NCBI GenBank assembly: GCA_001275005.1
Contig: JWZX01002898.1
Coordinates: forward strand, 1 to 49,855
Source: Chrysochromulina tobinii
Lineage: Eukaryota
Length of the DNA: 49,855 nucleotides
Reading direction: 5' to 3'
Both the position numbers and the translations under genes were made by a program. Each line of letters begins with the position of its first letter. Position 1 is the first letter of the stretch. The notes under the pieces were generated by a model. The model ran no database searches and was not told the DNA's origin. It saw only the letters and a list, made by a program, of their open reading frames with translations. Of the stretch, positions 16,401 to 47,305 are shown in pieces.

Positions 16401-17513
16401 CGCATCGGCCTAATGAAGGAGGTCATCAGAGGCCATCAGAGGTCATCCGAGGCCATCACGTACCCGCTCAGCTGGCGCTGCGCATCGGCCTCGAGCTGGC
16501 GGCTCGACTCGGCGAGCACGCGGCGCGAGCGGCCGAGCTCGCGATCCATCTCGTCCGCATGCCGCTGAGCTCGGCCGAGCTCGAGTTTCGTCGCGCTCAC
16601 CTGTGGGGTGAGGGCGCCGTGGTGGGCATTTGCATGCTGGGACTGGGAAGGGGCCGAGCTCGAGTTTCGTCGCGCTCACCTCGGCGCGTAGCTGGTCGAG
16701 CTCGTCCGTGCTCGCGGCGAGCTGCTCGCGGTGCTCGTGGCGCTCGAGATGGCGCTCGCGCTCGAGGGTCTGAGCTGCCTCCTCCGCGACGCGCGCGCGC
16801 CGGTTCGCGTGCTCCAGCTCGCCGCGCAGCGCCTGCAGCTCCGCCTCGTGACGACGCTCATCGGCAGCCATTGTGCGCCGCAGCTCCCGCTCAATCTCGC
16901 CACAGCGGTGCGCCACGTCGGCGATCTCGCGATCTCGCCCAGCTCGGAGCCGCTCGAGCTCGTCAGCCTCGCGCCCCTCGCGCTCGCGCAGCTTCTCCAC
17001 CTCGGCCGTCCGCTCGCGCAGCGCATGCATCAGCACCGCGACCTGCTTGTCGCGCTCGGCTGCCCGCGCCTCGGCCACAGCCACCTCGGCCTGCGCACGC
17101 TCGGCCGCTTCCAAAGCATCGCGCTGCGTCGCGGCCGCAAGGCGCGACTGCGACTCGAGCGCGCGAGCGCGCTGCGTCGCCGCGTCGATGCTCAGCCCGC
17201 GGTCGGCGAGCGCCGCATGCGCTGCCCCGAGCTGCACGGCGAGCTGGCGCTCGCGGTCGTGGCGTGCGGCGAGCTGATCCGCGACTACCTGCTGCGAGGC
17301 ACGTGCTGTACTCGCGGTGGCTTCAGCGGCCGCCGCTTTCTTCTCGGCGCTCTCCTTTTCGGTGCGCAGCCGCTCGACCAGCGCGTACAGCCCCTCGATC
17401 TCGTTATGGAGGGGCTCCGACAGCTGCGAGAAGCCGCCGCCCACCCGCCTCATGGCGGCGGGCGTGAGAGTCGGCCGCGAGCCGATGTAGTTCTTCGCAA
17501 AGGTGGGCATCAT
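13486..17513 (-). CDS. Large coiled-coil protein with low-complexity Ser/Pro/Ala-rich tail; 4 exons
   Basis: E/R/A/L heptad-rich ORFs join in frame through introns 16679-16601, 16463-16330 and 16164-15992; last exon 15991-13486. No recognisable enzymatic domain. Confidence 0.7.
15992..16463 (-). repeat. Intronic 10-mer satellite arrays (TGATGACCTC / CGATGACCTC on the gene strand) in two introns
   Basis: Tandem gaggtcatca/gaggtcatcg units on + at ~16001-16164 and ~16339-16458. Confidence 0.95.
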
Positions 17514-17730
17514 CGCAGCCATTCGCGACGGTGCCTATGACAGGGCACGGCAGCCACCGACGGAGGACCGGCGGGAAATGCCATGTGCGGTTCTTCAACA
17601 ATCCGATTCAAGTTCCGGACGAAACGCGCCGTTTTGGTCCCTTCGCATGCAATTGGGGGGAGGGGGGGGAGGGGGGGAAGATGGGATTTCGTAGGGAGGT
17701 GCGAGATCGAGAGCGACGCTAAGTCCACCC

Positions 17731-20700
17731 TCACTCACAGTGCCCCACGCGCATGATTTGAAAGCAGGGGCCGAGAGCCCAAATATCTTGAAACGTCCAT
17801 GGTGCGGCTGTGTACTTGGCATCGGATACATAGCCGCCCTCGCTCAACAGCAGCTCGGGGAAGGTCCAGCGCTGGTAACAGATGGCCGGGCCTGAGAGGT
17901 CGAGAACGCAGTCTAAATAGACTGGCGAAGGGCCTGCGCTCGCAAGAGCAGAAAACCAAAGCAGCGCTCCTCGCCGCGCCCACTGCGCCCGCCCCGTCTG
18001 CTGCGGCCGCATCCGCCGCGCCCTGTGCAGCAACTGCACCACCTGCAGCGGCGGCATCGGCAGGGGCAGCAACGATGGCAGCGGCCATCGCCGCAGCTGC
18101 ATTGTTCGCAGCGGCAACAGAGGCCGCTTGGAGATGCGCGGCGTTGGCCTGGAGGGCCTGCAGCTGCGCTGGAGGTGGCAACGGTGGTGGAGGTGGCAGT
18201 GGCGGCGGGGGAGGAGATGGCGATGAAGGTGCTGAGGGAGGAGGCGGTGGTGATGGTGCCAGCACATCCTCAAACTCAAACTCAAACTCATAGTTCGAGT
18301 CATCCGTCTGATGTTCCGCGTCTGAATCATCGTCTGATGGTGGTGGCGGTGGCATGGTGGGCATCCGCTGTGGAGGTGGTGGTGGTGGTGCGGTAGGACG
18401 ACCGCAGTCGTGGTGGAGTGTCATGTGCCCCCCCGGAGGAGTACACCAACACCCTTCGGATGGTTGCCCCGGCCTCCAGCAACATGTTGCTGAGAAGCCC
18501 TTTCCCCAGTCTGGAGGCCTCATGCACCTTCGCATCCAGCGAAAGGTACGCATTTGCTAAAGAGTATCTCCTGCCCCTTTTGAAGCTCGTCTTGTCCCTG
18601 CCACCGCCCGTCTCGCCACCGTCTCCACCCGTCAGCTTGTCAATGGTTGCTTCAAAATTAGAAACTGCTTGCGCATGCGCTGCCAAGTGGGCCGCTCGCT
18701 CAGCATCTGTCGCTCAGCATCTGTCAGCACCGGGGCAGCTGGCCCGGCGGCATCGCGCATCGGGTATGCGCACTATGCCATCTGCGGACTGTGCCTCATA
18801 TTGACGCCCATCACTAGCGACTGAATTATTAGCCCATTGCGAGATACGGTTTGCGAGCTCACCCGCACGGGTTCTTTGCCGGACAGTCACGTGCGGCGCG
18901 ATGATTTGGCAGATGTCGACGCATCCTCTTGGTGTTGTCGGCAGACCGGGGGGTGCGGGATGCAGGGGCATTGGGTTAAAAATCGACTCACCCTGAAATG
19001 CCCCGTGGGGCACCGTCGGGTTGGTCGCAGCGAAGCGGTGAAGGCGCCTTCCAAAGTTCGGACTGGTACGGTGTTGAAATCTCATCAGGGATGAGTCTCC
19101 ATGAGCGAAGCCAACACGAGAGGGGATCGCGGTGGAATGGGATGCCATCCACGCCGCCGCGCCAGTTTGATTGCCACGCTGGAATGATGCCACTGCCAAA
19201 GCTGAGGCATGGTCAGTTGGTACCTGTCCCGTATTGCCTGCACCCATTCGGGAGAGCCTTTGGCTGGATGGTCGCACAGAGACCCCCCTCTGTAGTAGAT
19301 TTCCTAGATTACGTTGGGGAAACCGTTGCCGCCTCGAACAAAGGCACCTCGGAACCACATCGTGTCCGCAGGCGCGATATCGTCAGCCACAAGATTACCG
19401 ATCGCGGAGTTGTCGGCCCCAGCAAAGAGCTCGTTGAAGGCCTTCACCCGCGCAACCGGGTCCTTGCCCTCCAAGGTGGCGATAAAGTTGTCCCCGATCG
19501 GGTTTGTTGAATAGCGAAGCGCGCGTCGAGAGGGCACGCCAAGGCAGCCGCTGCGACACGCGCGAGCAGGCCTTGTTGGTGAGCCTTCTCGAGGAGCGCG
19601 GCCGCGGCCTTCGACTTCGGGCTCTTGTTGAAGTGCGGATGCGTGACGGCGTTCGTGAATTTTTTCACCATCGTGGTCTGCGACTTACCGAGGTCGCCCA
19701 GTGCCTTCGCCTCGAGTAGCGGTTTGAGGAAGCCGACGATCTGCTGGAAGGTGAGCTTGGGCTGGAGAATTTCGGCCTGCTTCCAGGCCTCGTAGAGGTC
19801 GATCTCCTTGTTCTCGGCAAATGCCCGCTTGTAGCCCCCCCCAGCAGCCACCACTGCAGCGGCCGCCGCCTTGACCTCGGCCTCACCTGCACCCTCTTGC
19901 TCGGCTGTCTTCTTCAGCTCGCACGCACGCCGCTCCGCCTCCTTTGCGAGGCTCCGAGGCTGTGCGGGTGGGACTCGCTCATGTGACGCGCATGTTCGTC
20001 AGCCCGCTCCTGCGCCGCCCGCGCGGCCGCCACTGCAGCGGCGGCTGCCTCGGCGAACGAAAACATGTGGGTGAAACGGCCTGGGGTGAGATCGGCCATA
20101 CGGCCAAGTTCTCGTTGCTCAGCAAGCCCGCGTCCCCGGTGGATAGCCAGGCAAGCTGGCCCTGTCGCAGCCCCCCGAGCGTCGAACCGAAAGCAAGTTT
20201 GCCTCCGCGGCCTCCGCGGCCTTCTTGCCGCGTTTCATCTCGTCGCGCAATGCCCGGAGCCCGTGCTTGTACGCACGCAGCTCCTCGGCTGACAGCTGCG
20301 GCGTGGCGGCGACGGCACCGCCGGTGCAAGGGCGCCGGTGTCATCTCTGATGCCTGCTGCAGTGCAGCCTCAAACTCCTCACCGAGGATGCGAGGAATCA
20401 TAGGTGAGATGATTATCACCTGCGCGGGCGAGGCTGAGCTCGTCGAGCGTGCGCGCGCTCGGAGCGTCACCAGCGTGACCTGTGGAAGCCGACGGCCGTT
20501 GAGGATCAAGCGCAATAGTTCCTCGGGAGGGTGTATCGCCCCCGTCCCTGGACTGTTCTCCTGGAGTAGTCGGATGAGCGTCTTGGTGGTTGTGTACCGG
20601 GGAAGGTCTCTTTGCGAGACGCACCTTGGCGCCATTCCGTCTTAGCGCGAAAACGTCGGTCAAGATGCGTCTCGCTGAACCGATCTCGTCAAAACCGTAG

Positions 20701-21250
20701 AACTCAACCACCTTCTTCTTCTTCGGTCAAGATGCGTCACGGGCGGCTTGAGGCTCCTCCCGATCCTCCTTCGGATCCTCCAAGCTTGAGCGCTGGACCA
20801 CAGCCTTGTTCTTCACTGTTGCCTTGTCGTGCTCCTTGATCCCAGTGAACTGGTTCACGAGGTCGCTGTCGACCTGAGCTTTATCTAACTGCAGGTGCCA
20901 TCCCGGAGAGCGATAAGGCGCTTCGCGTAGCCCTTAGGGTCCGCGGCGAACTCGCCGAAGCCCATGCCGGCAATATGATGCAGCGTGAGCTCATCACACT
21001 TGGCGTGTGACCCCGCACTCTCGGAGCAGACGATCAGGGGGCCCAGATCCAGGCGGGCCTTAGAAGTCGCAAACAGCGCGAGCACGTCCGGCTGCATCTG
21101 CTCCCCGGTGAAGACCGCCATCATTGACTCGCTTCTGCGTTAGTGATTTGGATCGGCGATGCTTGAACACGAGCGCACGCCCTTGAGCGCACGACACCGC
21201 GTTCTCCCAAATCTCAATTGAGATTTTAAGGAATCGTGAAGACATATCAT
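17731..21250 (-). pseudogene. Multiply frameshifted coding remnant, probable decayed mobile or foreign insertion
   Basis: Protein-like minus-strand segments repeatedly switch frame or hit stops with no evident splice sites (e.g. 20885-21124, 19979-20635, 19444-19854, 19304-19537, 18327-18686, 17735-18553). Flanked by CTCA repeats on both sides. No transposase or RT motif recognised. Confidence 0.5.
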
Positions 21251-21290
21251 CTCACTCACTCACTCACTCACTCACTCACTCACTCACTCA
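21251..21290. repeat. (CTCA)10 microsatellite
   Basis: Directly visible. Confidence 0.98.
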
Positions 21291-21368
21291 AGAGCGTGGG
21301 ACGGCTCCCGTAGGAACTTTTCCCCACATAACCCGACGCGTTGTATTGGCGGCAAGGGCGTTCAGAAA

Positions 21369-23418
21369 ATGGCGCAGAGACCATCGTCGCCTCGCAGCCA
21401 ACTCAGCTCGCTGCTGCTCGGCAAGCTCGGCGTGCCTGAGGACTCGCTCGATGCGGTGATGGCCGAGGCCCAGGAGAAGCTCACCGCCTCGGACGCTGAG
21501 AACAAGCTGCACAATCGCAAGCTCTACTTGGTGCGCTGGCACACCGTGCGACGGTGGACTGCACGCAGCGAATGGGGGCATCTGCTCAGCGTCCACTCCG
21601 CCTGGCAGGTAATCGATCTCGACGAGACGCTCGTCTACTCCAAGCGCCTGGAGCCTGGCGCGACGCCGGTCGGTTCGCTCATCTACGTGCGCGGCCAGCC
21701 TTTTGACATGCAGCCCCGCCCCGGGCTGCAGCACTTTTTGCAGATGGCCGCGAGCAGCTACATCGTCTTCTTGTACACGATGGGCGACGCCGATTACGTG
21801 CACGCGGTCATGAATGTCATAGACCCCGAGCGCCAGTACTTTCGAGGTGCGCGCCCTCCGCAACCTCGCCATGCCTCCCCCGCGCTCACCGTTGCCCCCT
21901 CTCGCCCCCGCCCCCGAACGCCTCGACGATGCGGCAGGTGGCATGTGCTGCTGGCGGCCGACCGAGAGCCGCCAGAGCAAGAGCCTCGCGCGCGTGCTCA
22001 CGGAGAAGCGCATGACGCTCGTCGTGGACGACTCGATCGACGTATGGGCCGAAGATCTCCCGAACTTGTGCCTGACGCGCCGCTTTGTGGGTGACAAGCT
22101 CGACGATGGGCTGCAGCTCCTCTCGTGGCAGCTCAAGCTGGCCCACCGCGCCTTTTACCAGGACGTGCCGCCCGAGGGCTACAGCTACGAGGCCACGATG
22201 GCGCGCGCGCCGCCGAGCTTACCGAACGTGCTCCGAGAGACGCGAGGCACGCTGCTCTCCGGCTGCACGATCGCGCTCACCGGGGTGGTCAGCGACCAGC
22301 GCGAAGAGCACGCCGAGGTGCAGCCGCTCTGCGTCCTCATCCGCCTCTACGGCGGCGAGTACACGCTCAACGTCGACGCGGCCACGCACCTCGTCGCACG
22401 ACGCAAGGATGGTTGGCAGCGCTCGCCAAAGATCAGTCGTGCGCTCAACAGAATACAGGTGCGTGCCGCTCCGACCCCGCACGATAGTAGGTCACGCGCG
22501 CGCGCGCCTCCCCCGCTCGCAAACCCTCCTTGGACGCCACGCAAGTCGCGCGCTACGCGCCGCGCGAGCACGCGCGCTGCTCCAGCTGCTGTGGCGGGGC
22601 CGAGGCCTGCGTCCCCTTTCTTGAGTCCGACGAGCCCAGCGGGCATCGCCCTAAATTTCGCCGAGAGAGGGGGATGGTGCCGACAGCTTTCGAAAATCGT
22701 GTGCCCCCGTTTACGGCGCGGCGGGGTGCGGGTGTGTCTCAAACGACGACGGCATCGAGAGCGGCCCACAAGTTCTCAAGTTCATGAGAGCAGCCCCCAA
22801 AGCGCGCAAATATGATATGCATACCCCGGGGCGCTTCCGTCACGGTTCAGAAGATTGATGAGCATCTTTCTGAGCTCGCGCGCGCGAATTAGAACGCCCT
22901 CTCAGCAACATGCGGACCTCGCTCGGCCAACCCCCAATGTCGTTACGGCAGGCCACTCGGCGCCGGCCCCTGAGCGCCGTCCCGAGCGGACGTTTCGCGC
23001 GCGCGTTGTGGCGGGCGCATCGGTCGAAAGAAAACCCAGCGCGTCGTCACGAATGCTTAACGGGGGTCGCCTGCATCCTGACGTGCGTGCTATCCCCTGC
23101 CCCTTGGTGTGCGCTCAGGAGGGCGCGTCCAACTTTTACGCTGTGTGGGACCACTGGCTGCTTGACACTTTGGCCTCGTGGCAGAAGCAGTCCGAGGCCA
23201 GCTACGCGATCAGCCTCGACGAAGAGCGCGGCGAAAGCCCACCGCCCACGTTCCATGATCACGTGGCACAACAGCTTGCAGGCATCAAGCGTGAGCACGT
23301 CGCGGATGATATGAGTGACGCGCTGACGAGCGTGCCTCTCAACTCGGGCGTGCCTCTGCGGAAGCGAAAAGCACCGGAGGCGGACGACCTTCCGCATTCA
23401 CAAATATTTAGGACGTGA
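21369..23418 (+). CDS. RNA polymerase II CTD phosphatase, FCP1/CPL-like (FCPH/NIF + BRCT); 4 exons
   Basis: KLYL-VIDLDETLV (DxDxT), RPGLQHFL, YTMG..DY, LVVDDS.DVW; BRCT LSGCTIALTG...ATHLVA...WLLDTLASW. Introns 21531-21608, 21847-21937, 22459-23118 all splice in frame. Confidence 0.92.
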
Positions 23419-23668
23419 AATCTGAAGAGGAAGACCGGTGGGCACACCCCCGTTGGCGGGGGTCCACGTACAGAGCTCAGAACCACGCGCTTCGTCATCT
23501 CAAAAGGCGCGCACTTCCCACTTCGAGCACTCGTTCACACTTCTCGGCACTCGTGAGGTTCGAGATTTTCTCAGAGGACGAGGGGCGGGGGTTGGGTTTT
23601 GAGCGCGGGTTTCTTCACGTGAACAGTTTGAAGGGAACTTGAACTGGGGGTTTGTGAATTGCGAGTAA

Positions 23669-26600
23669 ATGCTCGTCGCCGTCTTGCACGAGATCGTCGG
23701 CGTGGTGGGTGCCATTTTCGAGGCACTGATTGCGTTTGTGCACTCGTGTTGCGGCGAAATTTATCGGCGACGGCGACGGCCTCACGTGACAGTGCTCATG
23801 CTTCTGACCATCTGTGTGCTCATCGCGTGGCTGTCGGTGCAAACTTCTGCCGAAGTGGTGAGCACCGGAAGCCCCACGCCACCGCACCTAGAAGAGTCGG
23901 CGATGCTTCCGCCTAGCACTCCAGAGTCGCGACCATCGGTTACAAGCCGACATGGCACACACTCGCGTGTCGCCGTGACCATCCGATCGCTCCATACCAG
24001 CAAGTACTGGCAGCTGCAGAAGGAGGCCGACGGCACCAGGATGCGCCTCTCTGCCAGTGCGCCGCCGGAGCAGCGAGGGCTTGAGAGCACGGTCTTCCTG
24101 CTGGAGCGCGAGGGCGATCCCGAGAGCGGCGGCTGGGTGCTGCTCAGGTGGCTCAAGACAAGGCAGTTGCTCGAGGCGGTGCCGCCGGGCGTGCTGGGGC
24201 GCGAGGAGGATGCTTGGAGCGTGCGCCTCTCGGAGGCGCCGGCGGTGAACGAGCTGCACAAGCTCATCATCGAAGATGATGCGACGCACTCGCAGTCACA
24301 CATCTGGTCTGTCGGGCTCCACGGCTATCTCAACCAACTTGCCTCCTCAGACGACGTGGTCGGGCACGGCGACGCGTTCCCGCCGACGGTGGCCACCGAG
24401 CCGCCGCCTCGCGGCGCGGTGGCCGTCGAGCGGCTCACGAGCGGAGCCGCGTGGCTGATGGAGGCTCTCGAGCGCCGAGATGAGCAGCTCGACGCGCTGC
24501 AGGAGCAGCTTGATGCGGCGCGTGCCGAGCTGGCGGCGATCTCATCGAAGGTGAGGGGCACGCCCGGGATTGTGATGGATTGTGATGGATGGCCAATGGA
24601 GTGCCACTCGTGAGCTTCGTCAACCCAATGTACCAGGGGAGCGTTAGGGTCTCCTTGACTGTCCTCGATTGCCCTTGATTGAGTGCCACTCATGAGCTTC
24701 GTCATCTCCTCGGCACGCGCCGCGCAGTAGCCGACGCCATGATTGTCCTTGATTGACGAAGCTCATGATTGTCCTTGATTGCCGCGCAGGAGCCGACGCC
24801 ATGTTTGTCCTTGATTGACGAAGCTCATGATTGTCCTTGATTGCCGCGCAGGGGCCGACGCCATGATTGTCCTTGATTGACGAAGCTCATGATTGTCCTT
24901 GATTGCCGCGCAGGAGCCGACGCCAGGGCGACCGGTAAGCTCGCGCGTGAGCCCCACTGCCGCCGCCGCCGCCGCCGCCACCACCACCATCACCACCGAG
25001 GTCTCGACGGACGGGAACGGCGCCTCGACGATGCCCAGCGCGAGACCCTCTGCTGAGGGCTCTCTGGTGGCCGTTGGGACGACCGTTGGGACGGCCGTTG
25101 GGACGGCCGTTGGGAAGCTTGTCGAAGCGCGGACGGCGCCCCAGCGACGCACTCATGTGCACGTCGAATGCCCCGCGAGCGGCGCGAGCGGCGCGAGCGG
25201 CGCGGCGGCAGGCGCCGCTGCTGCCCCAGCCCGCCGCACGAGCGCGCGCAGGCACCGAGGACGAGGACGAGGGCGACTGCGCGAGGCGGCCCCGGGTGGC
25301 GCCCACGACAGCACCACGGACGTCGACGAGGGCGCCCAAGACGACGCGACCTTGAACGCCACGAGCGTGTGCTCTGCGGACGGCCTCCCGATATGGAGTT
25401 ACATGGCGGGGGCCGAGTATCTCAAGTTCGTGCGCGCGATCGCGAGCCGACTGCGCCTCGGCAGCGGCGACGCCCTGTTGGATCTCGCCGCCGGAGATTG
25501 CGGCGCCTCCTCGCTCGCCATCCAGCAACTCTATCGCGGCCGCCTCAAGTCCTTGGCCCTACTGCCGACGGAGGGCTCGGTGCACCTGTTTAGGCAGGCG
25601 TTGCATGCGAGGAGCACGCTGGGCACGCCGCAGGGGCAATTGCAGGGGCAGTTATTACAGGGGCCATTTGCGCCGCAGGTGAACACGTGTGTGGCGAGCG
25701 CCTCCAGGCATGCACGTGCTCACTATGACGCCCTCTCTCCACCCCGCAGGTGAACACGTGTGTGGCGAGCGCCTCCAGGCTCGACTGGCTGCCTCCCAAT
25801 AGCTTCGACGCGGCCATCACATTTGGCGCCTTTAGCATGCTTCGCTCGCGGGCTCGGCTGTGCTCCTCGTACCGCGCCGTCTTGCACACCCTCCGTCCCG
25901 GCGGCCGTTTCGTCATTGCGGACGTAGAGCATCCCGACCGCTGCTCGAGGCCGAGCAGCAGCAGTGGCCCCTCCTCGTCGTCCCTGGCCGAGGCCGCGTC
26001 ACTCAACGGTCAGCCCGATGAGTGCGCCAGCTGCCATTGGCGCGTGTCGGTACCCCTTGCGTTTTGGATTGCATGCACACCAATGGACCTCGAGGTCACC
26101 GTCAGCACCGTCGAGCACACCGACCTGCCGGGTACCTCCACGTATCCGTGCGCCTCGCGACACTTTGCGCTGCTCGCGCAGCGGGCCTCAACGCCGCACG
26201 AGGTGAGGGCCACCATCGAGGCAAGCTCGGAAGAGAGCAAAGCGAGCAAGGTGGCGGTGCTTCTCTCCCTGTCGGCGAGCGACACGGTCGACGGCGAGTT
26301 CCAGCAGCGTGTGCAGTATCTCAAGGAGGCCTCGATCGATAACAAGCGCATGTACTGCGGTCTGCACGGCTACTCGCTCGTGATCGGCGAGGAGCTCCAC
26401 CATGCGCGCGACAGGTGGGCGAGTCGATTGCCATGGATTGCCATGGACTGCCATGGATTGCCATGGATTGTCATGGATTGCCACGGATTGCCATGGATTG
26501 CCATAGATTGCCATGGATTGCCATGGATTGCCATGGATTGCCACGGATTGCCATGGATTGCCTCCCAATGGCCTCCCAATGGCCTCCCGATGGCCGCCCT

Positions 26601-27418
26601 TCTCTCATGAGCTCTACCCTGGGCGCGGCAGAGGCTGGGACAAGGTGAAGTTGCTGGCCGCGCAGCATGCCAATTACGAGTGGCTCCTGTGGGTACCGCT
26701 CGATGCCATCTTTGCTGATACGGCGAGCTCTCTCGATGCGCTCACCGACGACAAGCGCGCAAATATCATCGCGTTGCAGGACGAGAGTGGCGATGGGATG
26801 GGGACTGGGGTACTTTCCGAGCCCCTTCTCATCCGAGGCAAGACCGAATGGTCACGGCGGCTCCTCGAGCAGGTGCGCTGATGGCCGCTGATGGCCACTG
26901 ATGACCTCTGATGACCTCTGATGACCTCTGATGGCCGCTGATGACCGCGGAGGACCTCTGATGACCTCTGATGGCCTCTGATGGCCTCTGATTGCGTCCC
27001 TCATCACTCCTTGAGCAGTGGTGGGGCTTTTACACCGATGGCTTCGGCGGCAGTGACAGAGAGGCGCTTCAGCTCATTCTCTCGTCGATGAACGAAGAGG
27101 AGCGCGCGCGGCGCGTGCGCATCATCCAGCCCGACGCGGTCTTTAGCTCGGTGGCGTCGGTGGAACCGCTCGCCTGGGCGCTGCCCTACACGCCTCCGGC
27201 CTTGCTCGTCTCCTTTGATGATAGCACGAGCCTCGTCGGTGCCGCCGAGCGTGCCCCCAGCACCATCGCCTGCCCGATGCGGAGCAGCGACCGTCAATTG
27301 CTTCGGTGCCTGCATGCCTTCACCTCGCACCATCTCAAGGCGATTCAGGCCGCCGATGCGCGTTACCATCCGCCGGCCGTCTTCGACACGACCGAGCACG
27401 CCATCACGACGACCGAGG

Positions 27419-27457
<39 letters not shown>

Positions 27458-29566
27458 GCAGTGCGGAGAGGGCACAAGAGGCGGGCGTGGAGGACGAGGC
27501 AGCCCGGGCGCGCAACTCGAGCGGCATGGCCGGTGGCGGCGGCATGGCCAAGAGTAGCGGCGCCGAGATCGATCTGGCGGGCCCAGATCGATCTGGCGGC
27601 GCCGAGATCGATCTGGCGGGCCGTTGGCTCACCCCTCGGCTTTCCTCGGGGCGCCCGATGGGTGGAAGTCCCCACAGGGCGATGGCCTGCCCCGCCGCAC
27701 TCTCGCGCCTTGCTGATGACGTGTCCAATCGGCTCAAAAAGAGGCCGGGGCGCGGGCGGAGCTTCCCGACACGGCTCCTGAGCGCGGCCAAGGAGCTCGC
27801 GTTGCATCAGGCGGCCGTTGCGCGTGAGGAGCGTCTCAAGGTAGGGCTGAGCGCCGACGTGGGCGCGTCTGTATCGCCAGGGAGCCAGGGGGGCGAGGGC
27901 AAGGGCGTTGAGGACGAGGAGCAGGCGGAGGCGGCATGCGCCACCGGCAGCACCTGGCCGCTCATGCCGCCCGCGCTCCTCGCCAAGCACGTGCTGGCCA
28001 TCGGCACGCGCCTAGCGCTAGGAGAGGGGATGTCCGTCCTCGACGTTGGAGCGACCTGTGGCCACGCGCTCGCGATTCTGCAGGCGCGCTACCGCAACAA
28101 GCTGCGTGCGATGGGCGTCGATGGCTCGAAGGCATCCTTGCAATATGCGAGGCGCACGTGCCAAGGCACCTTTTGCGTCGGCGACGCACGCCAGCTCTCC
28201 GGGCTCGCCGACGAGAGCTTCGACGTCGCGTTCACCATGGACATCATGTCTCAGTTGACCAGCACCGGCGACGTGTGTGACGTGGCCCGTGAGCTCGCGC
28301 GCGTGGTGCGACCTGGCGGGCGCGCGATGATCGTGTCCGTGCCGAAATCCTCGTGCGCGACCACGCATGACGCGAGCTGGGACTGCCCGCACTGCTTTTG
28401 GCAGCTCAAGAGCATCGACAAGAACTTTTGGGCGGCGTGCTTGTCGCAGCCGCCGGCGAGCGAGGGCTCGAGGGGGGGGAGGAGCTGGGGGCTCGGGGGG
28501 GGGAGGAGCTGCTGGCGGCGCGTACCGCATTGAGATTGTCGCGAACACGGAGCTCTTCCCCTCGAAGCCCGGGAGCTATTGCCATCGAGAGCACTACTCC
28601 GTGCTGATCCATAAAAAGTCGCCCGCCAGCGTCTTCGTCTTCCAGCAGCCGAAGCCCAAACTCGCCGTCCTCACCGTTGCCAGTACGCCCCCTATTGGCG
28701 AGTACGGCAAGCAGAAGGTGCATTACCTCACAGAGCTCTCGATCGAGAACAAGCGGCAGTACTGCGCGCAGCACGGCTTCGAGCTTGTCGTCGCGCAGAA
28801 CCTCGCTCACGGGCGGACGGCGCGCTGGGATAAGGTGCGGCTCCTCGCTGATGACTACTGATGACCACTGGTGACGCCTGATGACCTCTGATGACTACTG
28901 GGATAAGGTGAGGCTCCTCTCAGGCTCCTCTCAGGCTCCTCTCAGGCTCCTCTCAGGCTCCTCTCAGGCTCCTCTCAGGCTCCTCTCAGGCTCCTCTCAG
29001 GCTCTGGCGCCGGTGGCTCGCGTATCGGTGCTCACTACGGCGCCTCGCGCTCCCCACAGGTGATGCTCCTGCGCCGGATGCTCGCTCACTACGAGTGGGT
29101 GCATTGGGTGGACCTGGATACGCTCTTCATGAACCTGAAGCGCTCGCCGATGGAGTTCCTCGACGGCGCCTTTGACTTGCATGTGGCCAAGGACGCCAAC
29201 GGGCTGAACACGGGCTCGTTCTACGTCAAGGCCTCACCGTGGTCACACGAGCTCCTTCGGCGCGTGTGGGAGCATAATGACGGCGGTCAGGGCGAGTCGG
29301 ACCAGCGCTCGTTTGCACACGTGATCGCGCAGCTGTCCGGGCGCGAGCGGACAAAACACGTCAAGTACTACGCGCAGAAAATCTTCAACGAGTACCCCGA
29401 CCCGATCGTTTCTTTCAAGGGATGGCGCGGCCACTTTCGCGAGGGCGATTACCTGCTGCATTTCCCGGGTACCTTTTGCGGACTCTCGCCGAGCGGCGTG
29501 TACACGGACATGCACCTGCTCTCGTGCTTGCACCGCTTCACGATCCACTTTGTGGCGGCCATGTAG
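23669..29566 (+). CDS. Membrane-anchored protein with two tandem [class I SAM methyltransferase + GT34 (GMA12/MNN10-like) glycosyltransferase] units; 6 exons
   Basis: N-terminal RRRRR plus TM helix. MT motifs LLDLAAGDCG/SFDAA/LRPGGR and VLDVGATCG/SFDVA/VRPGGR. GT34 motifs KRMYCGLHGY..WDKVKLL..YEWLLWVPLDAIF and NKRQYCAQHGF..WDKVMLL..YEWVHWVDLDTLF..NGLNTG..DQ..GDYLLHFPG. Introns 24551-24913, 25679-25749, 26415-26631, 26873-27018, 28835-29059. One frameshift in the G-run at 28472-28479. Confidence 0.8.
24715..24925 (+). repeat. ~62-nt tandem repeat containing the 3' splice site (four CGCGCAG copies)
   Basis: AG at 24727, 24789, 24851, 24913, each followed by x-x-G-CCGACGCCA. Confidence 0.9.
26426..26561 (+). 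repeat. Intronic (GATTGCCATG)n 10-mer satellite
   Basis: About 13 tandem units, directly visible. Confidence 0.97.
26878..26993 (+). repeat. Intronic (TGATGRCCTC)n 10-mer satellite
   Basis: Directly visible. Confidence 0.95.
28848..29004 (+). repeat. Intronic compound satellite: TGATGAC-type 10-mers then (AGGCTCCTCTC)n 11-mers
   Basis: Directly visible; the 11-mer begins inside a copy of the donor junction. Confidence 0.95.
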
Positions 29567-29767
29567 AGAGTTGTGAGAGTTGTGGGAGTTGTACACTGTA
29601 CAGCACGGTGTAGCTCATCTAGGCGAGGGAATCCTATTCCTCGGTACGTTTTATATTGAAAGAACCATCTCGGAGTATTTTGGGGGATATTCGAAGCCCG
29701 AGCTCGCGGTGCTCAGCTGGACATTTCGTGTAAGCTTCGCGTGTCTGCATCTATTTCTTTCGCACAC

Positions 29768-30058: not shown

Positions 30059-30097
<39 letters not shown>

Positions 30098-31876
30098 GTC
30101 GCTGCTCCCGCTCCCGCCCCTGAGGTCGCGGTGCGGCCGCCATCGCCGCCGCTCCGCCTCGCGCCGCTGCACCCGGTGCCGACGAGCGATCCGCGGATGC
30201 CGCCCGCCAACATGGCGGCCATCTTCGGCAGCACGCAGCCGAATGACGAGTTCCGCGCCTCGCTCATCCACGCCTTCCACTGCCGCACGCCCTCTTGCCC
30301 GGTCGCGGGGTGCGAGTCACTCACCTCGAAGCTCGGTCGGCTGCAGCAGCACGTCTCGTCGTGCACGGAGAGCTACTGCCTGCTGTGCCGCATCTGGACC
30401 TACCTCAAGTGCTACCAGTGTGCTGCGCCGCTCGACATCTCCAGCAGCCACTCGCTCTGCCGTCCGGTCGACGCGCCCTCTACCAACGGGCTTCACACCG
30501 GCTCGCTCGCGCCGGCGCCGCTGCTGCCTCGCTGGCACCCCGACGGGCGCATCTCGTGGGTGTCGCCGCAGGAGGCGCTCACGCACCTGCAGGCGCTCAC
30601 GAGTGGCACCTTCGATGGCGCCCGCGACGGCGCGGGCTCCGAGCCGCCCTCCAAGCGCCACGCCGGGCCCGGCGCCGTGCATGCAAGTGCTCGCCACGGC
30701 GCCTTCGACTTTGCGACGGCGCACGCGGACTACCTCGCATCGCTGCAGGGCGTCGTGCCGGGCGCGCGCGTGAATCATGCGGCCGAGCTGCCCAGGCCGA
30801 CCGCGCCCGGCACGACGCCGCGCGTCGTGCCGGCCGTCGAGCCGCTCGAGTCGTTCAACTTCGATCCGCTGGTCAGCCCGCTCGGCGACACGCCACCCCT
30901 GAACTCGCATCAGCACTTTGGTGACCAACGCTCGAACACAAAGCATGGGGTGGGAGGGGCGCCGAGCGCCGTGTCGAGCGCCTCCGCCGCCGTCCCGGGC
31001 ACATCAGCGCTACCCGCCGCTCCTCCTTTGTTCAAGGGGCGGCACAAGCGCACCCTGACCTCCGAGCCCACTCGCACGTCCTCTACGTTTGCGCGCTCGG
31101 CGAGCGGTCTGCACGTGCCTCTTCTCAATCCGCTGCCGTCGCAGGCCGGCCAGACGCCCGGGATGGCGCCTTGGATGGCGCCCGGGCTCTCCCAATTTGG
31201 CAACGGCGCGCACTCTGGCCTGGGCGGCAGTGACTTGCACGCGGGCGGCGCGCTCGTCGGCTCGCATGGCGGAGGGGGGAACCAGGGAGGTGGGGGTCAC
31301 CAACTACCCCCCGAGCTCAAGTTCGAAGTGATGCAGGGTCTCTCCATGCAAGGCTCTCGCTCCCTCAACCTGAGCGGCAATCTCGCCGATCTGCTGCGCT
31401 CCTCGTCCAATCTCGATCTGAGCCTCCTCGGGCTCGGCATGAGCTCGAGCGATCTGGGCTCCCTGGGCTTCCGCAACGATGCTAAGCCCCCCTCCTCGGC
31501 AACCGACCACTTCTGCTCCTCACCGGCACTGACCGGCCAGAGCTTCGGGCTCACCGACACCCCGAAGCTCGGCGGCTTACCCTTTGCACGCGGCCAGAGC
31601 TTCGGACTCACCGACACCCCGAAGCTCGGCGGCGTGCCCTTTGCACGCGGCCAGAGCTTCGGGCTCTCCCTCGTGCGCGGCCGCTCAGGCCTCGACAAGT
31701 GCGCGTCCGAGTTCTCCCTCTCGGGCTTCCTCAACGAGGAGGCGATGGGTGGGGATCAATCGAGCGGCTCCGGCGGCACCTCGCCCCCCGTGGACAAGGG
31801 GCTGAATGACATCATGAACGACTTCACCGGAGGGTCCGGACCGCAGCACTCGGGGCAGCGGCTCGTCTCAGCATGA
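29768..31876 (+). CDS. Putative transcriptional co-regulator with RST-like domain and TAZ-type zinc finger, long disordered tail
   Basis: Single long ORF. LPLVDIIEALAHHVPMEK...LLIVGGADALRAAV resembles RST; LIHAFHC-x4-C-x4-C...H-x3-C-x4-C-x2-C fits TAZ; 63-nt repeat (GQSFGLTDTPKLGGxPFAR) near the C-terminus. Confidence 0.7.
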
Positions 31877-37565: not shown

Positions 37566-37594
37566 TGACTTGACTTGACTTGACTTGACTTGAC
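37566..37594. repeat. (TGACT)n microsatellite in the TCP1/kinesin divergent intergenic region
   Basis: Directly visible, about 5-6 units. Confidence 0.9.
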
Positions 37595-37661
37595 AAGCGA
37601 AACCGTCATCCAAGTTTGACCCTCCCTGGGGTTGAGGACAGCCCTTTGGGCGGGCGCGGGA

Positions 37662-40277: not shown

Positions 40278-40832
40278 TGGCGCTGTTGTGGGCGCTGTGG
40301 ATGTCCCCTTGATCATGTGGAGCATATGCAAGTGATGAGCCCCGCAATCGACGACGGACTTACGATGGCTAGAGACGAATATGTGCCGGCATCTGCGTGG
40401 ACTGTGGGGTTTCTGTGATGTGGGATGGGCAGTTGCCCGCAGTGAGTTTGTTGATGCGACACGACGATGCGTGGCTCGGCTTTCTGGTGTGAAGAGAGGC
40501 ACGACCTCTCTTGCCCGCGCGTCGTGGATGAGAGCGTCTGTGAAGAGAGGCGCGCGTCTGTGAAGAGAGGCGCGACGTGAGAGCGTGGTGCTGGCGTGTG
40601 GCTGTGCGGGGTGTGAGCGGCGGGTGTGTGGCATGCAAAATGCGAGGCCTCTACATGTGTGATGAGCATGTGAGTTGTGACCGGGGGAGTGGCCCAGAGT
40701 GCTCGATCTAGAAGTAGTACCAGAGACGGAAGATCTCCATGAACGCGTTTTCTTTTGACGTTTGAGACCGGTGGACCGGCGCGGTGTGAGCGATGCATCT
40801 CAACGCAATGGGACGCACGGCACCGAATTACT

Positions 40833-42782
40833 TCACCTCTTCGAAGGTTCGCCGCTCGCCCTCGAGATCAATGCACCCTCTGCATCTGCACCCAAGCGTG
40901 CCCACTCGCTCGCTGCCACTTGTCGAGCCATCTCCGGCGCCACAAAGACGTGGTCGTACGCCTGCTGAGCACAGGCCTTGCTGAAGCCCACGCGCGACTC
41001 GATCAGGCCCCGCGCCTCGCTCTCGCGCTGCAGATGGAAGCTTCGGAGCATGCGTGCCTCCTCGCGCTTCTTGGCAATCATCTTGGCGCGCTCGGCGGCC
41101 GCGTTGCGCCGTATAGCGTGCACCTCGGCCGACTTGGCACGCGCGTACTCGAGGGAGTCGCTCAGCCCATCACGGCGCGCCGCATCCCATTGCTGCACGC
41201 TCGCTTTGGTCGCCAGGCCCAACTCCATGCGCTGCATCGCTGCATACTCCTGCGCATCGACCGCCTCTGTGGTGAGCCCCGGTCGGTCGAGTTGGCTCGA
41301 GGCTCGCGCCCTCTGGTTCTCTTTGCGAACCTTGGCTGCGGCGGCGCGGCGCGTGCCTTCGACTCTGTGCATGACCGCCCGTGCCTCGGCCGTCTCTGCG
41401 CAGCGACGCACCTGCGTGATGAGGGATGCGACCCTCATTAGCATGCAATCATTAGCATGCAATCAGGCGACGCACCTTGAGCTCCATAGCATGTCATCGT
41501 TAGCATGCAATCATTAGCATGCACTCAGGCGACGCACCTTGAGCTCCAGTGCCGCCTGAGCGCGTCGCTGCATCGCCTCCCGCTGCGCCTCGACGGTTCG
41601 GTGACGCTGCAACCTCCCGTGGACCTCGTGCGATTCTCGCTGATGCACGAGGAACTCCAGATGCTGACGCTCGCGCTGCCGTCGTTGCTCGTCGCGCTGC
41701 TGGCGTGTCTCGGAGCCGAGTCGTGCGGCGCTCGCGTGCACCTCGTGCACCGCGAGTGCGGCCTTGCTGGTGCATCGGACCACGCCAAGGCTAACGCCAA
41801 GGGTGCCCAGAACCGAAGCCACAACCATTGTGGACGGCGTGCTAGCAAGGGGCTGGGAGGTGCTAGCATGGCTTTCGACATTCGCCCTGGCGGATCGCTC
41901 TCGAGATCGCTCTCGAGATCGCTCGGCCTCGCGCCGCCAGGTCAACTTGTTTGCTCGCAGCTGGGCCGCGCCCTGTCGGTTGTGGTCGACCACGCAGAAG
42001 CGCGCGAAACGAGTCGCTGAGCATGAAGCCTCCACGTCCCCCAGGGCGACAAGGGGCCCCGCCTCATGGGCCCGATCCTTCGCAATGGGGAGCTCGGGCG
42101 GCAAGCAACGCGCGGCAGCCCGAGACCGAGAGGCTTTGAGCGCGGCAGCGGCAGCAAGCATTCCAGCGTCGGCCCTCTGACGAACCTCGTGCGCCTTGAG
42201 CGCGGCCGCAATGACTCGCCGGGCCACTCGGACCGCCTCCCGCTGCGCCTCGTCGGCCGCCTCTGCCCGTGCGGCGTCTCGACGCGCAGCGCGACGCTCG
42301 GCGTCACGGTCAACATGAGCCAGGACTTGTCCGACTGTACAGCCCTCAGTGTAGAGCTCGTCGTCATCGTGCTCGATGTCATCGGCGTATGCGCGCTCGA
42401 GTTGCTCCGTGATCCGAGCACACTCCTGCTGCCACTCGTCAGGGTCGGTGATTCGTTGCGACAAGTCCAGATGCCCCAGCCTCTCAAATGCAGCAGACCG
42501 CTTGGCAGCCGGGTTGGCCGCCTCCTTGGCCAGCAACCGCATGCGCAGCGAGAGGCGGTTCTCTGCTGGTGCACTGGCCGTGGGGCGCACTTCCGGGATC
42601 GTGTGCCTAGCTGCAACACCGTACTCTGCGCCCGAATACAGAGACAGCACAAGCGGCAGCACCAATGGCGGTACAATTGGAGGTGGCGAACGCGGCGCCA
42701 CTACATGTAGCGGCTCGACGTCAGTGCCAATCGAGAGGTTGTCGACCGCGAACATGTCGACCACGTCGTCCATGCTATCCAT
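40833..42782 (-). CDS. Uncharacterised protein with charged helical regions; 2 exons; start uncertain
   Basis: ORFs 41514-42917 and 40833-41462 join in frame (LELK-VRRC) through intron 41537-41412; first in-frame ATG at 42782. Confidence 0.6.
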
Positions 42783-43021
42783 GCGGGTCCAAAAGCCCTG
42801 TAGCAAGGGATGTCCGTTTTCGCTATGAATACTGGACCGTTTTCGTGCATCTGCATGCAAACGATCTTCCTTCTCACAGTCTAAATCATCGCACACAGGT
42901 TTGAGCGTTAAGTCCACACAGTACAGCGGCGCTAAGGCAAGCGCGTCCCCGGAAATTCGCTACTCAAAGGTTTCACAAACTGATTCACAAGGAAAAAGGT
43001 CAGCCGAGACGCGTCGTCCTT

Positions 43022-44179
43022 ATGGAGCCCGCTATCGGCGCTCTCAAGAGGCCGCTCGACGAAGGCGGAAGCTTTATCGACGTACCGCCTCCGAAGCGTG
43101 CGGCCGATGGTGCACAGGGCGGGGCGCCAGATGCGCAAGGCAGCGCAAGCAACTCGATGGCGGCAAACTCCGTGGCCGCCGCGAGCACAAGCCTGGAGAA
43201 GAGTCATGGCAAATCCAAGGGCAAAGCGAAAGCCGCGGCAGCGGTGCAGCCACCGCCCGCGACCACCGCAAGCAAAGATCAGGAAACGAGCGCCAAGGCA
43301 GGCAAGCGCAAGTCGCCCAGTGGCGAAGCGGCCGCTGGCCCATCCACGGCCGCGCCCGCGCCGCCGCCTGCCAGATCGCGAGGCAAGGGCTCGCTTGGCA
43401 AGGGCGTGGCAGACGAGGCCGCGGTGGCCATGATCGGAGGCGGAGGCGGCAAGGCCGTGGCCGAAAAGCCGCCTCCGATCACGGAAGCGGCGGCTTTGGC
43501 CGCGAGCGCAGCGTTGGCGGGCAGCTGCGCGCGGCGGCTGACGCGTGGCGTCGTCCCTGCGCTCAAGGCTGAGCTCGTGAACCAGATGGCGTCGGCCCCG
43601 ACGGCGCCGATGGAGGGATGGCACCAGAAGGATGGTGATGACGACAGCATGGCGCACATCACGACATGGGAGGGCTGGGAGAGCCGACTAAAGGAGGAGC
43701 GCGTGCCCTCGTACGTCCTCGAGGAGCTGTGGAACCTCATCCGATCTCTCGTCGACGAGATCAGCCAGCAAGCGATGCAGCCCCCGGCGATGGCACGCAC
43801 GCTCGGATTGCCCGACATGGCGCTCGAGCTGCCCGGCACGGCGCCGTCCTCCTCCGCCTCGGCACCAGCGGCGCCGGCGGCGCCCGGCACGGCGCCCGGC
43901 ACGGCGTCAAATGCGCCCGCCACGGCGCCCGGCGGCTTCGGCACCGCGCCCGGCACGGCGCCCGACGCTCCATCGGCAGCCCCTGGGTGGAAGGATGGCG
44001 TCGTCGCGGGCGCGAGGGCTCCCGAGCCCACCGCTGCCCCTTGTGCGGCGCAATCAGTCGCAATCAGTCGCAATCAGTCGCAATCTGCCCCTTGTGCAGC
44101 GCCGCCCGTCTCGGCGCCGCAGCTCGCAGCCGCAGCACTACCACATGTACCACCACCACCAGCAGCAGTACTACCAGCA

Positions 44180-44219
<40 letters not shown>

Positions 44220-47200
44220 CGGTGGCCGCACCTTGCGAGCCGTCGCACTGCGCGTCCGCTATGGGCATGGCTTTCGAGCAGTGCATGCAACCGTCGCAGT
44301 GCATGCAACCGTCCGCTATGGGCATGGCTTTCGAGCAGTGCATGCAGTGCGACGGTTGCATGCACTGCGCGAAGCATCGAGTGCATGCAGCCGCTACGGG
44401 CACGGCCTTCGAGCGCAGCGCCAACGGGCAAGCGAGTAACGGCTGCATGCAACCTGCCGGTACCGAGGGCGCCAACGGCGGCGTGCGGCTGCCCCCTGGC
44501 TGCATGCAACCGGACGCGTACGACCTGAGCGAGCGCCTCCGCCGGTTGCTGCCCTTAGCTAAGAAGCCGCTCTCGTTCGGGCAGCTGTATTACCTTCTAC
44601 TCGGCACCCTCGTCGGCTATAAGAATCGTGTGATGCCTCGTACGATCGTGCCAGAGGGCCCATTGACGAAGCAGGCCCTCATCTCCGCCAATCTCGCCCA
44701 CCATGCCTACTCGCTGGGCGCGACAGTGCACAAGAGGCTTGATGAAGCCTTCCTAGAGCAGGTGCGCTGATGGCCTCTGATGGCCACTGATGGCCACTGA
44801 TGGCCTCTGATGGCCACTGATGGCCTCTGATGACCTCTGATGACCACTGATGACCTCTGATGGCCTCTGATGACCTCTGATGACCACTGGCTCACCTTGC
44901 CTAATCTGGCCACTGGCTCACCTTGCCTAATATGGCTCCCCTTGCCCCTTGCCCCGACCCGACCCGAGCAGTGTGCGCGTACCGCCCGAGCTTTGCGACT
45001 CGACCATCCCGTGAGCGGCGGCGCCATCCCCCTTCGGAAAGCACTCAAGGCTGTGCTCGAGACGGCGCCTTTCTCGCAGTACGAGGTGATGACGAAGCAG
45101 GCGTACAACCTGCTCATCGGCCAAAAGAAGCTGTGGGTGAGCGGCGAGCGTGAGCAGCTGCTACAGACCCTGTGCACACGGGATGGGCGCACTTGGATCA
45201 CACTCGACTTCTTCGTCCAGGTGCGATCGCCCCTGATTGCCCTATGATTACCCTCTGATTACCCTCTGATTAGCCTCTGATTGCCCACTGATGGGCACTG
45301 ATCTGAGCGCCGCTGATCACGCTCGAATGCATCGTGCGCAGCACACGTCGTGCAACGCGTCAGAGACATACGTGCTCGTGCACGCCCCCACGCGGAAGAT
45401 CGTGGGGCTTGCAGCCGTCTCCGACTTCCAGACGCCCTGGACGGCGGGCCAATTCCATCACATGGCGCATGCATGCCAGGAGGACCGCATGTTCTTCTTT
45501 GGGCGCAAGTCTGAAAAGGAGCTCACCCCCAAGGTACCATCCGACACTGATTGCCAAAGGAGCTGACCCCCAAGGTACCATCCGATTCTGATTGCCTCTG
45601 ACTTAAAAGGAGCTGACCCCCAAGGTACCATCCGATTCTGATTGCCTCTGACTTAAATGGAGCTGACCCCCAAGGTACCATCCGATTCTGATTGCCTCTG
45701 ACTGCTTCTGATTGCGTCTGAGTGCGTCCCTCATCAGGTCGCAATCGACCTGTCGGCCTCATTCGAGGGCGGCACGCGCTGGACAAGCCACTTCCACATG
45801 CCCACCCTCCTCTCGGTCGACATCATCTGCGTACAACCGGGCGTTCGAGGGCTAGCGCACTTGCTGCTCGCGCACATCTGCTGCCTCACCTCGTCCTTCA
45901 CCGCCGACCGCACCCATTGGCTCTTCGACATCTCCGGGCGCGAGAGCAACCTTCGCATGGTCCGCTTCACGCAAGGGATCGGTGCGTCGCACATGCAGAC
46001 CTTTGATGGCCTTTTGATTGCCTTTTGTTGGTATGCAGACCTTTTGATGGGTACATGGTCCACTTCTGATTACCTTTTGATTACCTTTGGATTACCTTTT
46101 GATGGGTACACGCTCCACTTCACACAGGTGCGTCGCACATGCAGACCTTTGCCGACGAGGCTCGCTCCGAAGGGTACGTAGGCGTCGAGGGCGACGATCC
46201 GTCCATTTACTGGACGTACAAGACCGCCAACGGCTTCGGGAAGGACGACGGGAGCACCGCAGGCGTGTACGCGGTCGACGTGGAGCTCGGCAGGTGAGTG
46301 TCGTTCATGATTGCCTCTTGATGACCTCTTGAGTGCCTCTTGAGTGCCTCTTGAGTGCCTCTTGATTGCCTCTTGATTGCCTCTTGATTGCCTCTTGATT
46401 GCCTCTTGATTGCCTATCGATTGCCTCTTGATTGCCTCTTGATTGCCTATTGATTGCCTCTTCTGAGTGCCTCTGATTCCTCACGCGGTCGATGTGGACC
46501 ATGTCGGCAGTACCATCGGCACCGAACACCCGGCCGTGCTCTTCAATGACCGCGTGACCCAGAGCGACTTTTTGCGAGGGGGCAAGAACTGCTCGTACTT
46601 TGCAGTCGCGCCACTCGAGGTGTCGAGGACGAAGCTCACCCAGCAGCTCGAGCAGCTCCGCGCCCAGGTGTGTGTCGTTCATTGCTGCCTCTTGATTGCC
46701 TCTTGATTGCCTCTTGATTGCCTCTTGATTGCCTCTTGATTGCCTCTTGATTGCCTCTTGATTGCCTCTTGATTGCCTCTTGATTGCCTCGAGCACGAAG
46801 CTCACCCAGCAGCTTGGGCAGCTCCGTGACCAGGTGCTTGGGACGGCGCTCGGATGCGCCCACTGATTGCATGCACGCGCTCACAACGGCGCCCCACCCC
46901 TCTTCCCCACAGGTGCTCGCCGAAGAGCTCGAGGCGGCGCTCGAGATCAAAGCTCGCGAGCTGGGGGCCACCGAAGCGCTCGCAGCCGCTGCCGCTGCGC
47001 TCGAGCGCCGCCTCGAGCACCCGAGACTCCCGTGGCAACACGCCCAATACGGCGCCGCGGGCGCGCCCGATGCGGCGCTCGATGTGGACCCGAGCATGTT
47101 GAACTCGCTGCTCGCCTCCCCCGAGATCTCCCCCGAGATCGACTCCTCGCCGAAGCCGCCGCTACCGCCACTCAAGGGCGTCCTGCCTCCTTGCATGCAA

Positions 47201-47305
47201 ACGCTCACAACGGCGCCGCACCCCACTGAGAGCGACCTGCCGCCCGTGGCGAGGGCAGCGCCTAGCGTGACGGCGCCACACTCGACGAAGCTTGACGAGG
47301 CTTGA
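43022..47305 (+). CDS. Large protein with low-complexity N-terminus and a probable GNAT-fold acetyltransferase domain; 7 exons
   Basis: Introns 44762-44971, 45221-45341, 45534-45737, 45982-46127, 46294-46510, 46668-46912 give a continuous frame. YVLV..KIVGLAAV, LSVDIICVQPGVRGLAHLLL (motif A-like), NLRMVRFTQGIG (motif B-like). Confidence 0.65.
44768..44890 (+). repeat. Intronic (TGATGRCCWC)n 10-mer satellite
   Basis: About 12 tandem units, directly visible. Confidence 0.97.
45516..45702 (+). repeat. Four tandem copies of the exon-3 end plus 5' splice site (GGAGCT(C/G)ACCCCCAAG|GTACCATCCGA)
   Basis: Copies start near 45518, 45559, 45609, 45659. Confidence 0.95.
46308..46790 (+). repeat. Two intronic (GATTGCCTCTT)n 11-mer satellites (~46308-46462 and ~46686-46790)
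   Basis: Directly visible; same unit in two neighbouring introns. Confidence 0.97.

Follow-up and report, generated by a model that had tools for sequence, protein, structure and literature searches.

Introns with a shared 3' cassette and a duplicated exon target in Chrysochromulina tobinii: probable products of template switching between introns

Introduction

The origin of new spliceosomal introns is a long-standing question. Seven proposed routes of intron gain are listed in a review, most of them with few unambiguous cases (PMC3443670). The closest described systems are introners, which are similar introns in many unrelated genes (PMC9860276), and introns gained by tandem duplication or DNA repair. 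An intron family of this general kind is described here from Chrysochromulina tobinii, in a stretch of 49,855 nt (contig JWZX01002898.1 of assembly GCA_001275005.1, hereafter the window) and in further contigs carrying the same sequence. The introns end with a shared cassette made of a 25-nt core, a pyrimidine tract and AG, and most of them begin with a copy of the start of their downstream exon. On balance, we favour an origin by template switching, in which the 3' end of another, often neighbouring, intron is copied into a donor-like site.

In the introner-like classes 4/5 and 6/8/10 of Symbiodinium and Polarella glacialis, as in C. tobinii, the insert provides the 3' splice site, with the duplicated target providing the 5' splice site (10.1101/2020.10.14.339549; PMC9860276). 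Splicing likewise restores the coding sequence, and copies amount to hundreds to thousands. On the other hand, those elements have fixed target site duplications (TSDs) of 4 or 8 nt and, in Symbiodinium, inverted repeats, whereas the duplication in C. tobinii is variable, makes up about one third of the intron and is accompanied by no terminal inverted repeats (TIRs); the ends of the C. tobinii insert are also variable, and its source is often the next intron. Introners from a marine Chrysochromulina metagenome-assembled genome (MAG), which bears the same genus label, also lack TIRs and take their acceptor from the duplication, as does the own-donor class described below, but, from their description, they have a 4-bp TSD (PMC9860276). 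Where an intron is gained by tandem genomic duplication of an AGGT proto-splice site, it is acquired precisely and owes a splice site to a duplicated exon segment, as here (PMC3443670). The duplicated segment in that case is host sequence alone, whereas in C. tobinii the copies are separated by foreign sequence that contains a branch point, a tract and AG, so that the target needs just a donor-like GT. Introns gained by repair are new, polymorphic and flanked by direct repeats, as here, although the repeats in C. tobinii are longer and the source of the insert is identifiable as the end of another intron. The process in C. tobinii thus has elements of two reviewed routes, gain by tandem duplication and gain by repair (PMC3443670).

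The family agrees with the introner definition in that similar introns occur in many unrelated genes, and presence/absence variation, another introner criterion, was seen in one case in about 8 kb. Similarity beginning within 10 intronic bases of each splice site, which is also used to recognize introners (PMC9860276), is lacking. Because this both-ends similarity, TIRs and a short fixed TSD are all absent, the family is not classified here as an introner. Neither this family nor the gain of half-introns templated by a neighbour turned up in a literature search, which did not reach most subscription papers or the supplements of bioRxiv papers.

Cassette introns in the window

A first-pass annotation of the window had reported a cassette at the acceptors of four introns in three genes, with junction duplications at all four, and two further copies without the terminal CAG in coding sequence; these were interpreted as a mobile introner-like element. 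The cassette is real at all six sites (Table 1). Five copies of the core match with one or two mismatches, while 100 dinucleotide shuffles yielded no match at all; the sixth (29020-29044) keeps the 3' half of the core alone, as the annotated extent of this copy implied, and requires six mismatches. A C/T tract and CAG end four of the six copies, and the core of intron C holds what we take to be the branch point, from the CTRAY consensus. There is no Rfam match in the window.

Introns A and B share one gene, so that the four introns indeed belong to three genes. In intron A, the first 31 nt of the downstream exon recur without mismatch, joined to core, tract and CAG; intron C has the same order, with a 28-nt copy (28/28) and a short filler before the core. 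The other two introns are composite, and the claim of junction duplications holds for them in modified form, with decayed downstream copies and additional copies of the upstream exon end. On its 5' side intron B carries a donor with a 10-mer array and a short upstream-exon-end copy (28900-28907), and on its 3' side a decayed downstream-exon-start copy expanded by an 11-mer array, followed by the 3' half of the core, tract and CAG. Intron D consists of a donor with an 11-mer array, 45 nt (46789-46833) that repeat the end of the upstream exon (46623-46667), and a 79-nt unit (46834-46912) with a decayed downstream-exon copy, core, tract and CAG.

Excision of intron A, B, C or D leaves an open frame each time. 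Four of five full-length homologues are gapless across the spliced junction of A, and four of five across that of B, P0003 covering neither site; the WDK|V-equivalent position in the paralogous glycosyltransferase domain of the same gene is intronless. The match of one RNA contig (X14, record 4) begins at 25744 with 38 unmatched letters ahead, and that of another (X15, record 14) at 29058 with 29 unmatched letters ahead. These are the starts expected of the spliced products of introns A and B, respectively, allowing for bases common to exon end and intron end, and splicing of the cassette introns is thus indirectly supported. Runs X20 and X21 contained almost none of the words searched and are left out of this comparison.

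Table 1. Cassette copies, cassette-ended introns and their target copies in the window
Feature	Coordinates	Strand	Basis
Intron A, 71 nt, in methyltransferase/glycosyltransferase-34 gene	25679..25749	+	Sequence, open frame, homologue alignment
Core in intron A	25708..25732	+	2 mismatches
Exonic (downstream) target copy of intron A	25750..25780	+	31 nt perfect
Intron B, 225 nt, composite	28835..29059	+	Sequence, open frame, homologue alignment
5'-truncated cassette at acceptor of intron B	29028..29059	+	Sequence comparison
Intron C, 79 nt	16601..16679	-	Sequence, open frame, duplication 28/28
Core in intron C	16613..16637	-	2 mismatches
Upstream target copy of intron C; its first GT is the donor	16652..16679	-	Sequence
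Downstream (exonic) target copy of intron C	16573..16600	-	28 nt perfect
Intron D, 245 nt, composite	46668..46912	+	Sequence, open frame after removal
Core in intron D	46869..46893	+	1 mismatch
Exonic core copy	30679..30703	+	Core match, 1-2 mismatches
Exonic core copy, decayed tail	47193..47230 (core 47193-47217)	+	Core match, 1-2 mismatches

Both copies without CAG lie in open frames, as annotated, and neither is flanked by a duplication above background. The copy at 30679 corresponds to GAVHASARHGA in the window protein, which is matched by all seven listed members of its own cluster that cover the site. HASA is missing from all 14 covering members of a sister cluster with 84% identity (members listed, 15 of 38 and 15 of 19 for the own and sister cluster, respectively), and a more distant homologue retains HGA. 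Four in-frame codons were thus gained here, or lost in the sister cluster, and they adjoin older coding sequence that already resembled the 3' half of the core. This copy is translated and is not an intron. The copy at 47193, near the C-terminus of its protein, has two uncommon core variants in common with intron D, 324 nt upstream.

The family beyond the window

The family was sampled in 731 kb of fetched contigs, from culture and metagenome loci with cassette matches; the culture contigs, none of which overlaps the window, are presumed from their library labels to be of the same strain. This sample holds 310 distinct copies of the core with up to three mismatches, and an exact-pattern scan of metagenome contigs gave at least 139 matching stretches. 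In the culture loci, once the 3 kb around the seed match are set aside, 266 kb contain 8 exact copies and 33 near ones. The genome of C. tobinii is 59 Mb with 63.4% GC, about one intron per gene and 16,777 genes (PMC4580454), to which these densities extrapolate at about 1,800 exact copies and about 7,000 near ones; these figures are probably too high, as the flanks of cassette loci are gene-rich. The background is low, with 3 core matches in 596 Gb of prokaryote genomes and 1 in viral contigs. A contig filed as viral (L001) carries a complete cassette with acceptor at 3001-3060, and is probably host DNA within the viral collection. The genes that host cassettes include those for kinases, BEACH and TPR proteins, EF-hand neighbourhoods and the three window genes.

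The anatomy was analyzed in the 270 of the 310 copies that have at most two mismatches and sufficient flank. A pyrimidine tract and YAG follow the core in 190 of them, compared with 845 of 20,000 random positions (4.2%) and 1 of 270 on the opposite strand, which bears out the annotated link to 3' splice sites. In 131 of these 190 acceptor copies, 10-60 nt of the downstream exon, anchored at its start, are repeated upstream of the core (135 by a gapped test; 0.3% with swapped exons). The duplications have a median of 26 nt, and 57 of the 131 are perfect, with a range of 10-47 nt among 50 perfect ones. The duplicated target supplies the donor, as it begins with GT in 115 cases and with GC in 6 (121 of 131 together); in 25 of 131 there is no matching base before GT. 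The donor consensus is G|GTRMG. In this main class the first 24-60 nt of the intron are the locus-specific exon copy, and in simple introns the span from donor to core holds this copy and a short filler alone. The insert between the target copies has a median of 48 nt and is not host sequence. All but one of 112 simple introns are at least 64 nt long, and for the 131 cases with a duplication, lengths show no frame preference (45/48/38 for the three remainders modulo 3). Junction offsets, precise or codon-shifted, come mostly from small indels in the target copy. One cassette intron (L030, 2613, minus strand) has six additional bases before the duplicated target in its downstream exon, possibly an imprecise, in-frame gain.

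The acceptor test is failed by 80 of the 270 copies, 48 of which still lie between duplications (control, 7.5%). In these non-acceptor copies the host sequence resumes 0-25 nt past the core, and many of them are tandem units within an intron; solitary units are multiples of 3 in 8 of 13 cases, a small number. A further class with its own donor is found as 13 copies in 9 unlinked loci, with a 10-mer stretch and a common variant. Its 5' end is common and its 3' ends are locus-specific, AG being taken from an upstream-exon-end copy in about half of the rows listed.

Intronic arrays of 10- or 11-mers mark the sense strand (105/105), and relative to the nearest such array 143 of 145 copies are in sense orientation (105/105 acceptor and 38/40 non-acceptor copies), both exceptions resembling introns of a gene on the opposite strand. 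Only 2 of 112 introns reach 7/10 matches between their termini, and inserts reach at most 6/10. There is no poly(A) in the copies inspected, and five of six folds are within the shuffle range, the exception being the L115 copy (z = -3.2).

Differences between assemblies

Five orthologous pairs, about 8 kb in all, were aligned between assemblies. The locus L115 has a unit of 81 nt, including a perfect duplication of 34 nt, that the culture assemblies L016 and L057 lack, a presence/absence difference between populations. About 50 nt of this unit equal the end of the same gene's next intron, 524 nt downstream, as read in L016; the copy of that intron in L115 itself has one base different. The unit amounts to 27 codons and is open in two frames. 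A site filled in one assembly and empty in two others indicates that the cassette is not an ancient splice signal. Neither low copy number, nor lack of a link to 3' splice sites, nor residence in ancient conserved introns was thus found for this family.

Between L011 and L044 the number of target-plus-core units differs, as does a donor-type duplication resembling the start of the upstream intron. Introns at the remaining shared sites are kept in both partners, and there are no cassette gaps in the paralogue alignments L008/L063 and L021/L060.

Origin of the insert

A neighbour within 3 kb is the best match of all for 34 of 114 acceptor copies (1.76 expected); these collapse to 23 pairs, of which about 17 are independent. 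Similarity of at least 0.8 is reached by 13 of 167 same-strand pairs within 3 kb, by none of 28 pairs at 3-20 kb and by 0.42% of 17,700 unlinked pairs. The resemblance extends past AG, with a mean of 4.5 exon-start bases in common for best-match neighbours, compared with 2.9 for unlinked pairs, for other linked pairs and for equally similar unlinked pairs. At least four such bases are in common in 9 of 13 neighbour pairs and in 23% of unlinked ones (p = 6e-4, five repeated pairs having been removed by hand). This suggests microhomology that continues past AG into the exon of the source, and the template would accordingly have been unspliced. There is no base enrichment beyond position 6 of the target. 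Targeting by pairing of the first bases of the target with the core, hinted at by three folds, was rejected because the energies are like those of control exonic donor-like sites (36 vs 42 sites, p = 0.68).

The same geometry also occurs without the core. In 315 kb away from seeds, scanned for an exon copy plus tail and classified by eye, 13 rows have the core and 12 have an unrelated 10-mer tail, while the remaining 20 are coding or array repeats (26 rows in 508 kb of reversed sequence). A second tail family with identical geometry makes the process broader than this cassette. Junction duplications are also seen at 25 of 77 decamer-array introns without the core, some of them being intra-intron repeats.

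Within the window, introns without the core and with similar footprints are found at 45983-46127, 45515-45738, 46295-46512, 16329-16491 (minus strand) and 48315-48489. The first of these repeats 24 nt of the downstream exon start without mismatch, and repeats of the upstream exon end are also seen, some of them arranged in arrays of two or three units. Arrays of 10- or 11-mers fill most other window introns, e.g. at 16000-16162, 26426-26562, 26878-26992, 44767-44882 and 46308-46482, and many array units hold a YTRAY word, similar to the branch-point consensus. The 5' parts of two consecutive introns (46295-46345 and 46668-46720), each a donor with an 11-mer array, are nearly identical, which suggests that a donor end, too, may have been copied locally.

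How the introns may arise

These observations are best accommodated, with somewhat better than even confidence, by template switching, mediated by microhomology, while DNA within a gene is under repair or its synthesis has stalled. A break or nick inside the gene would lead DNA synthesis there to switch template where a G|GT donor-like site offers a few bases of microhomology. The new template would be the 3' end of a nearby intron, of which about 45-55 nt would be copied before synthesis rejoins its own template 15-45 nt back, giving the order target-insert-target. The GT of the first target copy would then serve as donor, and the insert would provide branch point, pyrimidine tract and AG, so that splicing would restore the original reading frame exactly. 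Selection would retain spliceable products and set the 64-nt length floor, hence the long duplications. Occasional switching to unlinked templates would spread the family through the genome, and the long direct repeats would also permit array growth and precise loss by unequal exchange. From the products and their statistics we infer the break, the polymerase and the template, which might be DNA or unspliced RNA. End joining mediated by polymerase theta makes short templated insertions, copied from nearby, with microhomology at the junctions. The C. tobinii inserts resemble them in shortness, nearby source and junction microhomology; inverted inserts, unlike among polymerase theta insertions, were not seen among the C. 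tobinii copies.

A wider proposal, which we hold tentatively, is that introns breed locally without a transposon, the branch-point-to-AG end being copied by repair switches, on the gene or on its transcript before splicing, into donor-like sites of its own gene; several different ends might be propagated in this way, which could account for a large share of the introns of this genome and might still be active in wild populations.

Several points weigh against template switching between neighbouring introns. The best match is not a neighbour in 80 of 114 copies, and the direction of copying, judged from duplication age, divides 5 to 12 (repeated pairs included). Later gene conversion between neighbours could be behind part of the local similarity, and the spread of the own-donor subfamily over 9 unlinked loci means that transfer in trans is real. 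The 5' half of the core is missing in just 12 of 179 acceptor tails, a count biased by the choice of loci by full core; as it is seldom truncated, the core could itself act in cis in mobility or splicing, a property not expected from a generic switch. Whole-intron presence/absence is seen in a single case in the 8 kb aligned, and this difference between L115 and L016 may, in a comparison confined to these assemblies, be due to loss through recombination between repeats. The RNA joints of the four window introns are not among the 15 of 97 joints listed.

The main rival, which seems unlikely, is target-primed reverse transcription of a short retro-element or unspliced intron RNA by an enzyme of the long interspersed nuclear element (LINE) type, in which staggered nicks would give the variable duplication and 5' truncation the variable start. 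The geometry of non-long terminal repeat (non-LTR) insertion would account for duplications of variable length and for the AG at which the main class ends, and the sense orientation of acceptor and non-acceptor copies agrees with it. A nascent transcript as template would also account for local sources, and non-LTR introners exist (PMC12130899). The fixed 3' end with a poly(A) or simple-repeat tail that characterizes non-LTR insertions resembling short interspersed nuclear elements is, on the other hand, absent, and non-acceptor and own-donor copies differ in where they end on the 3' side. Truncation from the 5' side seldom reaches the core, the microhomology beyond AG into the donor's exon is out of reach of an excised intron, and no reverse transcriptase was met among 35 long open reading frames (ORFs) scanned. 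Target-primed reverse transcription merges with the template-switch model if the template is nascent RNA.

A DNA transposon or miniature inverted-repeat transposable element (MITE), which is closest to the discrete mobile cassette first annotated, is improbable and, for the main class, largely refuted. High copy number, the conserved core and the dispersed own-donor subfamily speak for it, as do the logic of splice-site recruitment in the Symbiodinium and Polarella classes and the introners known from the marine Chrysochromulina MAG (PMC9860276). Published TSDs are, however, 3-9 nt and fixed per family, while the duplications here are variable and reach 47 nt. TIRs are lacking, as are clear antisense copies among the 145 examined for orientation, the insert ends are not fixed, an unrelated tail occurs in the same geometry, the source is often a neighbouring intron, and there is no transposase among the ORFs scanned.

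It is very improbable that the core is a splicing signal under selection, a longer branch-point element that selection and gene conversion have kept uniform among old introns, with tandem duplications at the junctions arising later and independently. The rarity of truncated cores and the junction duplications at decamer-array introns without the core are in its favour. The site empty in L016 and L057 and filled in L115, the many perfect duplications, the intronless WDK|V equivalent and the core copies in coding sequence all argue against it. As simple introns hold just exon copy and filler between donor and core, there is also no 5' part of an older intron.

A retained lariat might also be partly reverse-spliced into a donor-like site, either on the displaced DNA strand or in the same transcript, with repair afterwards. 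This reading fits the sense orientation, local sources and donor-like targets in the manner of the Micromonas R-loop model (PMC4540971) but is very improbable, since whole introns are not copied and target sequence replaces the 5' half of the source, the microhomology extends into the source's downstream exon, and non-acceptor inserts end elsewhere than at AG.

Other features

The gene containing introns A and B (24893-29566) fuses two methyltransferase and two glycosyltransferase-34 domains; its homologues in relatives have 1,500-1,600 aa. The TCP-1 alpha gene of the window shows 99% identity to a cluster to which the C. tobinii protein KOO26038.1 belongs. On the minus strand at 14402-14509, three 36-nt tandem units, each with an acceptor-like tail ending CCCCACAG, lie inside a long open frame and are possibly a decayed relative of the cassette. 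A 2903-aa polyketide synthase ORF (240-8951, minus strand) has AprA-like N-terminal, winged-helix and methyltransferase domains before the ketosynthase, a starter module unusual for an alga. RNA contigs of three runs match 19535-19838 at about 94% with 18 differences, and thus represent an expressed paralogue or repeat; the ORFs at 17738-20642 have no Pfam match. On a haptophyte-type contig of the sample (L048, 7171-11130), an ORF fuses a DabA inorganic-carbon transporter domain to an antiporter membrane domain.

Implications

Annotation is affected as well, since copies of exon ends and remnants that stay in frame can easily lead to erroneous gene models. The genomes listed by a pan-eukaryote introner screen include those of C. 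tobinii and C. parva, and outside this list the string 'tobin' is not found in the available part of its supplement (PMC9860276). Since the both-ends rule of that screen excludes the present architecture, other genomes may hide the same process. C. tobinii is estimated to have thousands of young introns whose target and duplication, and in many cases also source intron, are recognizable from the sequence, and its populations differ, which makes this route of intron gain testable. The cassette introns are real, abundant and young, and would represent an ongoing intron-making route that standard screens for mobile introns are designed to overlook.

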